From a virus (lineage: Duplodnaviria > Heunggongvirae > Uroviricota > Caudoviricetes): DNA of 8,593 bases. The notes under the pieces were generated by a model that was not told the DNA's origin, made no database searches, and worked only from the letters and a program-made list of their open reading frames with translations. A program made the translations under genes and the position numbers. Each line of letters opens with the position of its first letter. Positions within the stretch are counted from its first letter, which is position 1. Shown in pieces: positions 1 to 8,593 of the stretch. Where the stretch lies: IMG/VR virus record IMGVR_UViG_2657245015_000017, positions 1 to 8,593 of that record; one strand, 5' to 3'.

Positions 1-169
1 TGTTCTTGTTCGACTGAGCGAAATAATCCGCCACGGTGCCAAACATATTGGCGCGGTGAGAAACGGAGACGCCGCGAATGCCTTCCGGTGGGTAACGGGT
101 TGATGCCACCGCCTGCTCTGCTTCCTCTTTTGTTTCTACAAAAGGAATCAGGAAGTTATAGAAACCGAT
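1..169 (-). pseudogene. garL: Internal fragment of an HpcH/HpaI-family aldolase gene, best match 5-keto-4-deoxy-D-glucarate aldolase GarL; 5' part missing (homology stops at 169/170), 3' part runs off the window
   Basis: Minus-strand frame is open and translates to ...[56 protein letters not shown], which carries the RYPPxGxRG hallmark of HpcH/HpaI aldolases and matches my recollection of E. coli GarL almost residue for residue. Codons upstream of 170 in the same frame (..CQRVQRW) are unrelated. Not in the ORF track because it has no start and runs off the edge. Confidence 0.65.
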
Positions 170-409
170 CCACCGTTGCACCCTTTGGCACTTCCCGCGA
201 AAGGTGGAGAAGCAATTGTGAGTCGCGCAGCCACTGTGCCGCCCGTTTACAGGATTGAGGCACCGACGCAGATCATCATCCAGACGCAGCCAGGACAAAG
301 TGCGCAGGATATTGCGCGGGAGGTGGCCCGCCAGCTTGATGAACGTGAACGCAGGCTGAAGGCAAAAGCCAGGAGTAACTACAGCGATCAGGGGGGATAC
401 GACGCATGA
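170..409 (+). CDS. 3' end (about 78 codons) of a P2-family tail tape-measure gene (gpT-like), partial
   Basis: ORF-track entry 176..409 (TTG is only the first possible start; the frame is open from 104). Its stop overlaps the ATG of the next gene in an ATGATGA arrangement, and it sits directly upstream of U-D-ogr as in the P2 late operon. Assignment is by position and gene order, not by recalled sequence identity. Confidence 0.45.
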
Positions 410-891
410 TGATGGTGCTGGGATTGTACGTGTTTATGCTGCGCACCGTGCCGTATCAGGAGCTGCAGTATCAACGCAGCTGGCGACATGCGGCAAACAG
501 CCGGGTAAACCGACGTCCGTCCACGCAGTTTCTGGGACCGGACAACGACATGCTGACGCTTTCCGGTGTTCTTATGCCGGAGATAACAGGTGGCAGGCTG
601 TCGTTGCTGGCACTGGAGCAGATGGCAGAACAGGGGAAAGCATGGCCCCTGATTGAAGGCAGCGGCACGATTTTTGGCATGTATGTGATTGAGGGACTGA
701 ATCAGACTAAAACGGAGTTTTTCCGCGACGGTATGCCGCGCCGGATTGAGTTCACCCTGTCGCTCAAACGGGTGGATGAATCCCTGTCCGATATGTTCGG
801 TGATCTCAGTGCGCAGCTGAATAATCTGCAGGGAACGGCAACATCTGCCTTAAGCGATATCAGTAAAACGGTGGGAGGGCTTCTGTCGTGA
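406..891 (+). CDS. P2-like phage tail protein gpU
   Basis: 161-aa ORF with ATG at 406 overlapping the upstream stop and a GGGGGA Shine-Dalgarno 8 nt upstream. Its stop (889-891) overlaps the GTG start of the D-like gene (GTGA). Size and position match P2 gene U between T and D. Confidence 0.7.
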
Positions 892-1988
892 ATTTCAGCT
901 CTGAACTGCTTAACAAAGGCAACAAAACTCCGGCATTCAGCATCAGTATTGAAGGCAGGGATATCACCACTGTGCTGGACAACCGCCTGATGAGTCTGAC
1001 GCTGACGGATAACCGGGGCTTTGAAGCAGACCAGCTTGATCTGGAACTGGACGACGCCGACGGAAAAATCGTGCTGCCGCGTCGTGGTGCGGTTATTACG
1101 CTGGCGCTGGGCTGGAAAGGGCAGCCGCTTTTCCCGAAAGGGGCATTCACGGTGGACGAGATTGAACACACTGGCGCACCGGACCGCCTGACTATCCGGG
1201 CGCGAAGTGCTGATTTTCGTGAAACGCTGAATACCCGCCGCGAAAAATCGTGGCACAAGACCACTGTCGGGGAAGTGGTGAAGGAAATAGCTGCGCGGCA
1301 CAAACTGAAGATGGCACTGGGTAAAGACCTGTCTGATAAACCCGTGGATCATATAGACCAGACTAATGAGAGTGACGGCAGTTTTCTGATGCGGCTGGCT
1401 CGCCAGTACGGTGCCATTGCATCGGTGAAAAATAGCAATCTGTTATTCATCCGGCAGGGACAGGGCAAAAGCGCCAGCGGTAAACCTCTGCCGGTGATCA
1501 CTATCACACGCAAGGACGGCGACAGTCACCGCTTTACCCTGGCGGATCGCGGAGCTTACACGGGCGTCATTGCCAGCTGGTTGCATACCCGTGAACCCGC
1601 GAAGAAAGAAAGCACTACAGTGAAGCGTAAGCGCAGGACCAAGAAGCAGAAGAAAGAGCCGGAAGCGAAGCAGGGCGATTACCTGGTGGGGACGGATGAA
1701 AACGTGCTGGTACTTAATCGCACTTATGCCAACCGGAGCAACGCCGAACGAGCGGCAAAAATGCAGTGGGAACGCCTGCAACGCGGTGTTGCGTCATTCT
1801 CGCTACAACTGGCGGAAGGGCGGGCAGATCTTTACACGGAAATACCTGTAAAAGTCAGTGGTTTTAAACAGCCGATAGATGATGCGGAATGGACCATTAC
1901 CACCCTGACGCATACTGTCAGCCCGGATAACGGTTTTACTACCAGTCTGGAGCTTGAAGTGAGGATTGATGATTTCGAAATGGAATGA
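888..1988 (+). CDS. P2-like phage tail protein gpD (late control gene D family)
   Basis: 366-aa ORF with GTG start at 888 preceded by GGGAGGG 9 nt upstream. It lies between U and ogr as in P2, and its size is close to P2 gpD. The N-terminal region (LTLTDNRGFEADQLDLELDD) resembles D-family proteins as I recall them. Confidence 0.75.
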   Translation: MNFSSELLNKGNKTPAFSISIEGRDITTVLDNRLMSLTLTDNRGFEADQLDLELDDADGKIVLPRRGAVITLALGWKGQPLFPKGAFTVDEIEHTGAPDRLTIRARSADFRETLNTRREKSWHKTTVGEVVKEIAARHKLKMALGKDLSDKPVDHIDQTNESDGSFLMRLARQYGAIASVKNSNLLFIRQGQGKSASGKPLPVITITRKDGDSHRFTLADRGAYTGVIASWLHTREPAKKESTTVKRKRRTKKQKKEPEAKQGDYLVGTDENVLVLNRTYANRSNAERAAKMQWERLQRGVASFSLQLAEGRADLYTEIPVKVSGFKQPIDDAEWTITTLTHTVSPDNGFTTSLELEVRIDDFEME

Positions 1989-2078
1989 TTCTTCGCAATG
2001 GAGAACTTTTAAGTTTGCAAAATGGAATAATGCGGTATCATTGTTGTGAATTTAGCAAAAATGGGGAGAACTCGAAAA

Positions 2079-2297
2079 ATGATGATTTGCCCACTGTGTG
2101 GAAGTGCCGCCCATACTCGCAGCAGTTTTCAGGTATCTTCATTGACCAAAGAGCGTTACAACCAGTGCCAGAACATTAACTGCAGCCATACTTTTGTTAC
2201 CCATGAAACTTTTGTTCGTTCGATTGCAACGCCAAAAGAGTCAAATCCGGTTCAGCCGCATCCAATGAAATCAGGGCAGGTGGCGCTCTCTCTTTGA
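2079..2297 (+). CDS. ogr: Ogr/Delta-family zinc-finger late-gene transcription activator
   Basis: Translation MMICPLCGSAAHTRSS...KERYNQCQNINCSHTF... has the CxxC-N22-CxxxxC zinc-finger arrangement (CPLC ... CQNINC) and aligns with recalled P2 Ogr / E. coli OgrK (MFHCPLCQHAAHARTS...KERYHQCQNVNCSATF...). The ORF track starts at GTG 2046, but ATG 2079 gives the 72-aa length typical of Ogr; GGAG at 2064-2067. Confidence 0.85.
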   Translation: MMICPLCGSAAHTRSSFQVSSLTKERYNQCQNINCSHTFVTHETFVRSIATPKESNPVQPHPMKSGQVALSL

Positions 2298-2377
2298 CGC
2301 TGCCGCCATTTTGTCGCCATCGTTAAAAAACAGTGCTTCTAACATCATGATTTTAAACAGCATAAATTTCAGGCAAC

Positions 2378-7268: not shown

Positions 7269-7355
7269 TCGCAATCACATTACTGATCATGGTTTTGCCT
7301 GCGCTTTTTGCGTAAGCTGTGCCGGTCTTTTTATCGAAAGAGGTTGTACAAAATT

Positions 7356-7832
7356 ATGACATCGCTGGTCGTTCCTGGTCTGGATACGCTGCGTCAATGG
7401 CTCGATGACCTGGGGATGAGTTTTTTTGAATGTGATAACTGTCAGGCTCTGCATCTGCCCCATATGCAGAATTTCGACGGTGTCTTTGATGCCAAAATCG
7501 ATCTGATCGATAACACGATCCTGTTTTCTGCCATGGCGGAAGTCCGACCTTCAGCCGTATTGCCGCTGGCGGCGGATTTATCTGCCATCAATGCCAGTTC
7601 GCTGACCGTGAAAGCATTTCTTGATATGCAGGATGATAATCTGCCAAAGCTGGTGGTTTGCCAGTCTTTATCCGTTATGCAGGGCGTAACCTATGAGCAG
7701 TTTGCATGGTTCGTGCGTCAGAGCGAAGAGCAGATTTCGATGGTCATTCTTGAAGCTAATGCCCATCAACTGCTGTTACCGACTGACGATGAAGGGCAAA
7801 ACAACGTTACCGAAAACTATTTTCTCCACTGA
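7356..7832 (+). CDS. ybjN: YbjN, putative sensory transduction regulator family protein
   Basis: 158-aa ORF from ATG 7356 (MTSLVVPGLDTLRQWLDDLG...) with AAGAGG upstream. The ORF-track TTG start at 7308 is an unsupported upstream extension. Confidence 0.9.
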   Translation: MTSLVVPGLDTLRQWLDDLGMSFFECDNCQALHLPHMQNFDGVFDAKIDLIDNTILFSAMAEVRPSAVLPLAADLSAINASSLTVKAFLDMQDDNLPKLVVCQSLSVMQGVTYEQFAWFVRQSEEQISMVILEANAHQLLLPTDDEGQNNVTENYFLH

Positions 7833-7849
7833 TAATTCCTTTCGAGCAC

Positions 7850-7872
7850 GCAGTCGCTGCCGCAGTGACTGC
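7850..7872 (+). terminator. Stable hairpin downstream of ybjN (possible operon terminator or REP-like element)
   Basis: 10-bp stem GCAGTCGCTG/CAGTGACTGC (one G-T pair) with 3-nt loop. The T5 tract is about 20 nt downstream (7893-7898), so terminator function is uncertain. Confidence 0.3.
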
Positions 7873-8183
7873 GCGCTGCAAAATTATCTGCTGTTTTTAA
7901 CCTTTTCTTAAAGATTATTTCACTTATCTTGTGTCGATTTGGCTTTATCACATAGAGCAAATACGCATAAAAATTTGTTAAATACCGTTTTTTAATCCGA
8001 GCTATAGTCTCAAACCCTGGCTAAAGTTATTCTTGCGATGCTTTTATATAGCGAGCAGTGCTGGCCGGGAGAGAGTTCTCTTTTCTTACACCGCGCCGAT
8101 AAAAAAATATGCACGTTTATTGCATATCTTTCAGTGTGACAACTTTTGTTCGTTTGTTAACGAACTTTCAGAAGGAAAGAGAT

Positions 8184-8483
8184 ATGACCGCCTTAAATAA
8201 AAAATGGCTATCGGGTCTGGTTGCGGGTGCTCTGATGGCCGTCTCTGTCGGCACGCTCGCGGCTGAACAAAAAACACTCCACATTTATAACTGGTCTGAT
8301 TATATCGCCCCCGACACGGTGGCTAACTTTGAAAAAGAAACCGGTATTAAAGTCGTCTACGATGTTTTCGACTCTAACGAAGTACTGGAAGGCAAATTAA
8401 TGGCGGGTAGCACCGGCTTTGACCTGGTGGTGCCGTCAGCAAGCTTTCTTGAACGCCAGTTGACTGCGGGAGTTTTCCAGCCA
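8184..8483 (+). CDS. potF: Putrescine-binding periplasmic protein PotF, first 100 codons only (signal peptide plus start of mature protein); gene is interrupted at 8483/8484
   Basis: ATG 8184 preceded by AGGAAAG; translation [100 protein letters not shown] matches E. coli PotF. After codon 100 the expected LDKSKLPEW... is absent in all frames; the frame runs into foreign sequence and stops at 8586-8588. Confidence 0.85.
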
Positions 8484-8593
8484 TTTGCCCGATGTACGCG
8501 CGCGTGGATGAAGACCAGCCCTTCCCGGCTGTGCCGAAATGGTCCATCAAAAAATGGCTTTCGCTACCTGGAGAGACGCGCCCGCTGATCCTT
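8484..8593 (+). pseudogene. lacZ: Internal fragment of lacZ (beta-galactosidase, around residues 495-531), lacking both ends, out of frame with potF
   Basis: The +3 frame relative to potF translates to [37 protein letters not shown], identical to the LacZ segment ...[48 protein letters not shown]... as recalled. The nucleotides also match recalled lacZ sequence (TTTGCCCGATGTACGCGCGCGTGGATGAAGACCAGCCC...). Confidence 0.85.

Follow-up and report, generated by a model that had tools for sequence, protein, structure and literature searches.

Probable chimeric garL and lacZ ends on a draft Escherichia coli contig that carries a prophage end at rybB

The stretch of DNA analysed here (the window, 8,593 nucleotides, positions 1 to 8,593 of IMG/VR virus record IMGVR_UViG_2657245015_000017) consists of three pieces: an antisense fragment of garL (1-169), a chromosomal core that includes one end of a P2-like prophage (170-8482), and a sense fragment of lacZ (8483-8593). 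The window is a complete draft whole-genome shotgun (WGS) contig, CDRU01000158.1 of the Escherichia coli assembly GCA_000946335.1, with the garL and lacZ pieces as terminal tails. We consider it very likely (probability about 0.86) that a library or assembler chimera arose at both ends of this contig in the public draft assembly. On that reading the two joins are not real biology, and their value lies in quality control.

The window as a draft contig with two foreign ends

The identity of the window was established through an open reading frame (ORF) generated by the right join. This ORF encodes 134 amino acids, the first 100 from PotF and the other 34 from out-of-frame codons, and an exact-sequence look-up found it in a single public contig, CDRU01000158.1. 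Like the window, this contig is 8593 bp long, and its positions 1-1909 and 5184-8593 are identical to the same coordinates of the window. Because the chimeric ORF is unique to a contig of this length and both of the contig's sequenced ends are identical to those of the window, the window is the whole of CDRU01000158.1. Exact-sequence look-up of a junction-spanning ORF can thus trace a sequence to its source record. A literature search for accession GCA_000946335.1 found no paper on the assembly.

The gene calls on the contig agree with those in the window. A 63-amino-acid stub of the tape-measure gene with a GTG start is called on CDRU01000158.1 at 218-409, as in the window. In the other contigs that bear this 63-amino-acid ORF, the sequence ahead of position 170 is tape-measure-like; the garL tail is in none of them, and they match it at just 15-17 of 60 positions. 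Two ORFs that cross the left join, of 77 amino acids (TTG start) and 56 amino acids, are absent from the protein collection in which the 63-amino-acid GTG call is present. The 134-amino-acid protein, in which truncated PotF runs into nonsense sequence, is UPI0007E8FA79. It is listed from NCBI and MetaClust and not from the Logan re-assemblies, an absence that lends weak support to an artefact.

We compared the window with 5,426 complete E. coli genomes by megablast, using the whole window as query, and then searched with each end separately (left, 175 bases; right, 119 bases) before comparing all three pieces base by base with their native loci. No complete genome covered more than 97% of the window. 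The best match lay in one contiguous place in E. coli O111:H21 strain 15A (NZ_CP077477.1), at 100.0% identity over window 169-8482, and this was also the greatest extent covered: not one of the 5,426 genomes held a record spanning either join. Window 1-169 matched garL at 100% identity in essentially every E. coli genome, and the match of the right-end query to lacZ, also at 100% identity, began at window 8483. The core, with its first base at 169 or 170, corresponds without a mismatch to NZ_CP077477.1 1460354-1468667 on the minus strand. Its left end lies inside a phage tape-measure gene (nt 2838 of 3078) and its right end inside potF (nt 299 of 1113). RefSeq annotation and base-level mapping thus place both joins within coding sequence.

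The tails and joins are as follows.

1-169, minus strand: left chimeric tail, an internal garL fragment (nt 268-436 of 771) with 0 mismatches; T169 may belong to the tail or to the core
169/170, no strand: left join between garL and the tape-measure gene, blunt, with a 1 bp ambiguity and zero inserted bases
8482/8483, no strand: right join between potF and lacZ, blunt, with 0 bp shared and zero inserted bases
8483-8593, plus strand: right chimeric tail of 111 nt, an internal lacZ fragment (nt 1498-1608 of 3075) with 0 mismatches

An earlier note on this DNA, made from the letters alone, had described the window as a mosaic of three unlinked loci joined inside coding sequences. Both descriptions are borne out by the separate matches of garL, core and lacZ and by the interruption of the tape-measure gene by garL and of potF by lacZ. 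The 169 bp given there for the left flank and the start of the core at 170 were also correct. The right flank, however, has 111 nt instead of 110, the last core base being 8482 rather than 8483. The same note had named a finished natural genome with this exact arrangement, supported by spanning long reads, as a find that would refute its reading; there was no such arrangement among the complete E. coli genomes.

Neither join was found in the other collections that we screened. An exact 38-mer across the left junction and an exact 36-mer across the right junction were both absent from GTDB species-representative genomes, JGI metagenome contigs and IMG/VR. Among PLSDB plasmids, junction-spanning queries matched on one side or the other alone and never across a join.

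All three pieces are present in strain 15A, each in its normal gene context. The lacZ tail is found there exactly at 2015470-2015580 on the plus strand, and the garL tail exactly at 3852844-3853012 on the minus strand. The three loci (3.853, 1.46 and 2.015 Mb for garL, core and lacZ) lie 0.55-2.4 Mb apart and in mixed orientation. A test for more than one source revealed no strain difference, both flanks being, like the core, 100% identical to strain 15A. The tail alleles are widespread, and K-12 F' plasmids bear the same lacZ allele. The test is therefore non-discriminating, and an origin of all three pieces in a single genome is compatible with the data but unproven. The native sequence just outside each end of the core is single-copy in strain 15A, indicating that the core sequence broke off in unique DNA. 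Repeat boundaries, which we considered as a cause of the contig breaks, were rejected on the same ground.

Sequence at the two joins

Base-by-base comparison detected 1 bp of micro-homology at the left join (T169) and 0 bp at the right join. The earlier note had proposed a search for micro-homology and had itself seen one shared A, at 8483. Native potF has G where the window has A8483, so that this base is not shared and nothing is left in common at the right join. For random blunt joining, the probability of 0 shared bp is 0.56 and that of 1 bp is 0.28. Since 0 and 1 bp fit random blunt joining, the homology at the joins is no greater than chance.

The same comparison assigned every base of the window to garL, the core or lacZ. 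With all bases belonging to three native loci, none is left over for element ends, linkers or scars. A repeat scan of the window found no family of direct or inverted repeats bracketing either join; the repeat pairs that touch the joins (I6 and I21) are 18-25 nt long with a 76-78% match, and resemble dozens of others listed by the scan. Base mapping and the repeat scan likewise found no insertion sequence (IS) or transposon ends, no terminal inverted repeats and no target-site duplication at the joins. An identical core of the attachment-site (att) type was not found between the partners of either join, which have just 1 bp and 0 bp in common. The claim of the earlier note that the joins lack IS ends, target-site duplications and att-like repeats is thus confirmed.

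No transfer RNA genes were found in the window, and 12-mers of Nextera and TruSeq adapters, mate-pair linkers, FRT and loxP are absent from it. At the right join the potF frame enters lacZ out of frame and reaches a stop at 8586-8588, and the lacZ piece is a long way from the part of the gene, the alpha fragment, that vectors carry.

The garL tail stops exactly midway through an EcoRV site of the native gene, GAT|ATC (window 164-169; L002 1664-1672). An origin of the broken ends by restriction cutting was considered and rejected, since the three other ends, inspected by eye, match no blunt-cutter site; the EcoRV overlap is probably a coincidence.

Origin of the joins

We propose that both tails were added to the core during library preparation or assembly. 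The true sequence would have broken off in unique DNA, at a coverage gap or at a fork in the assembly graph. The sole extension would then have come from a few chimeric fragments or reads, or from small stray contigs joined with zero gap by a scaffolder or gap-closer. The tails would derive from other parts of the same genome or of one nearly identical to it, and the contig would have ended once more after roughly the length of a read or k-mer, where the path met the properly connected garL or lacZ locus. A contig end just inside garL or lacZ would be expected if those loci were also connected normally in the read graph. The step that made the chimeras may have been ligation or polymerase chain reaction (PCR) during library preparation, greedy extension by the assembler, or scaffolding and gap closing.

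Both foreign pieces are short and terminal. Were the junctions real, the probability of finding the two contig ends so close to them (169 and 111 nt) would be about 2e-5 to 8e-4 for a mean contig size of 5-30 kb. The features of an artefact occur here together, namely presence in a draft contig only, short terminal tails on the scale of a read, blunt joins, mixed orientation, distant loci and junctions that no independent assembly reproduces. Chimeric or misassembled short-read draft contigs of the relocation and inversion types share these properties, with blunt, mixed-orientation joins of distant pieces, short terminal foreign parts and junctions that are not reproduced elsewhere.

Several points nevertheless weigh against a chimera. 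The explanation presumes low read support at the joins, and it assumes that GCA_000946335.1 also holds copies of garL, lacZ, potF and the tape-measure gene in their normal contexts. A pure de Bruijn repeat mis-join does not give blunt joins that lack a shared k-mer; in its classic form it occurs at a shared repeat, whereas 0-1 bp are shared here. Physically chimeric reads or joining after assembly must therefore be invoked. Furthermore, tails of 169 and 111 nt fit neither each other nor a default k-mer size, and it is unusual for misassembled draft contigs that both ends of one contig are affected.

The earlier note had placed an engineered construct and a synthetically embedded segment beside a chimeric assembly as the more typical sources of such a pattern. 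Its view that the arrangement is not natural stands, narrowed to chimeric assembly, while the other two branches are disfavoured. Four alternatives were weighed in all, and even when taken together they are quite unlikely. The most serious of them is a real rearrangement in the isolate, in which two illegitimate, homology-independent events would have put the 8.3-kb segment between the interiors of garL and lacZ. Such an origin would be in keeping with a contig that is error-free relative to a closed relative, with three pieces that all fit one genome, and with the 0-1 bp of micro-homology that illegitimate recombination can leave. It would, however, require at least two simultaneous breaks within four genes together with an inversion, and loci separated by 0.55-2.4 Mb would have to end up no more than 8.3 kb from one another. 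Neither junction occurs in the complete genomes or in any other collection screened. That the contig ends 169 and 111 nt past the joins is very improbable for real junctions in unique DNA and fits instead a graph fork at which garL and lacZ are also connected normally. We therefore regard a real rearrangement as very unlikely. Slightly less credence still is given to a real end-joined molecule of garL, the 8.3-kb prophage-end and host segment, and lacZ in the isolate of GCA_000946335.1 or in a subpopulation of it; possible sources of such a molecule are double-strand-break repair patchwork and aberrant phage-associated packaging and ligation.

Engineering, in the form of a cloned fragment, a reporter fusion or a recombineered strain, is highly improbable even though lacZ is the classic reporter and both Gibson assembly and recombineering leave no scar. 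In lacZ fusions (Mud-lac, lambda placMu and engineered reporters) a chromosomal gene, the place taken by potF here, likewise stands directly before lacZ on the same strand. In these fusions, however, the join is close to lacZ codon 8-10 and Mu or lambda ends or linkers are present, whereas in the window lacZ starts at nt 1498, which is neither a fusion-type 5' end nor the alpha fragment, is out of frame with potF and has no element ends. The garL piece is antisense and internal, the core begins in the middle of the tape-measure gene with no logic of design, and vector backbone, marker, multiple cloning site, FRT, loxP and linker are all missing from a sequence whose every base is native; nor is either junction present on any PLSDB plasmid. 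We judge as extremely improbable a deliberate in-silico build, such as a benchmark in which a real segment is padded with decoy flanks. Perfectly blunt joins, flanks from very well-known genes and an odd window size would suit it, but the 8593-bp sequence is already on deposit at NCBI as a WGS contig that agrees with the window in its gene-call coordinates and at both ends, so no separate embedding step is needed. Least probable of all, and close to negligible, is the formation of the joins by a mobile element or by site-specific recombination (IS, transposon, Mu or phage att). The prophage end within the core does bring mobile DNA near the joins. Against this origin, there are no bases from outside the three native loci and no bracketing inverted or direct repeats, the left join cuts a phage structural gene, and the true prophage boundary, which has a 14-bp att core of its own, is at rybB, 2.2 kb into the core.

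The tails at 1-169 and 8483-8593 should be masked and the core alone trusted. Inference of genomic context across 169/170 or 8482/8483 is unsafe; the advice of the earlier note to draw it from the core alone is supported, with the core understood as 170-8482. The truncated or chimeric ORFs, that is, the 63-amino-acid stub and the 134-amino-acid PotF fusion, are unfit for interpretation and are already in public protein collections.

The prophage end at rybB

The core itself is genuine and holds the following features, taken from the annotation of NZ_CP077477.1 unless other evidence is given.

170-409, plus strand: 3' end (last 240 nt) of the tail tape-measure gene of a P2-like prophage, cut by the left join (RefSeq annotation)
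406-891, plus strand: gene for a gpU-like phage tail protein (annotation; PF06995, Phage_P2_GpU)
888-1988, plus strand: gene for a gpD-like "late control D" tail protein (annotation; PF05954, Phage_GPD)
2079-2297, plus strand: ogr/Delta-like zinc-finger activator of late genes, the final prophage gene
2375-2453, minus strand: rybB small RNA gene (Rfam RF00110, 105.3 bits against a gathering score of 40)
2375-2388: 14-bp att core (attR), AACAAAAAACCCAT, at the 3' end of rybB (comparison of attL, attR and attB in K-12 and strain 15A)
2533-4218, minus strand: ybjL, the start of a block of host genes that extends to 8183
4488-4865: ybjM
4895-5152, minus strand: grxA
5312-5599: ybjC
5583-6305: nfsA
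6366-7268: rimK
7356-7832: ybjN, followed by the potF upstream region to the end of the block
8184-8482, plus strand: first 299 nt of potF, cut by the right join (annotation and base-level mapping)

Annotation, Pfam and Rfam together identify the left 2.2 kb of the core as the T-U-D-ogr end of a P2-like prophage that adjoins rybB. After rybB, the gene order from ybjL to potF is that of both MG1655 and strain 15A. We located the att core from two comparisons, one of the window with the unoccupied site of K-12 MG1655 and one with the opposite end of the strain 15A prophage. It overlaps the 3' end of rybB, and its second copy lies at attL beside rcdA, about 35 kb away in strain 15A. Of the junctions in the window, the att join at rybB alone is genuinely that of a mobile element. 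Neither the garL join nor the lacZ join resembles this natural prophage join, whose 14-bp att core is repeated at attL.

Insertion of P2-type prophages at rybB is already documented for E. coli W, B and Crooks (Archer et al., 2011, PMC3032704). With its T-U-D-ogr genes next to rybB and its 14-bp att core, the prophage end in the window is that of such a P2/186-like element (Rybb*), a likeness that concerns the core alone and not the joins to garL and lacZ. Among the complete E. coli genomes, 973 of the 5,426 (~18%) cover at least 80% of the window, that is, possess the core arrangement. This arrangement is therefore common and already described.

Several further observations were made on the core and on its relatives. 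A 64-amino-acid ORF with an ATG start at 1985-2179, occupying the intergenic region between the gpD-like gene and ogr and the start of ogr, is without RefSeq annotation in strain 15A. Two records of about 73 kb from assemblies labelled complete, NZ_CP148584.1 and NZ_CP148399.1 (strains Z1322HEC0001 and Z1323HEC0009), bear the region from the prophage through ybjL to potF at 99.1% identity. They are odd as separate small replicons and may be unplaced chromosomal fragments. The deposited phages nearest to window 170-2488 are Klebsiella phages, for example 4LV2017 (95% over 2.3 kb, including the annotated attR), and not P2 or 186, which suggests a rybB-integrating phage lineage common to E. coli and Klebsiella.

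The 35-kb prophage of strain 15A, which extends outside the window, contains non-structural cargo genes at three loci (L001 7448-9020, L009 1638-3174 and L009 10615-12291). The cargo comprises a DprA-like protein and a phosphoribosyltransferase adjoining the portal gene, a DUF4041 protein between cI and the integrase, and a hypothetical protein and a PcfJ-domain protein among the tail genes. These are positions that we take to resemble the accessory or defence hotspots of P2.

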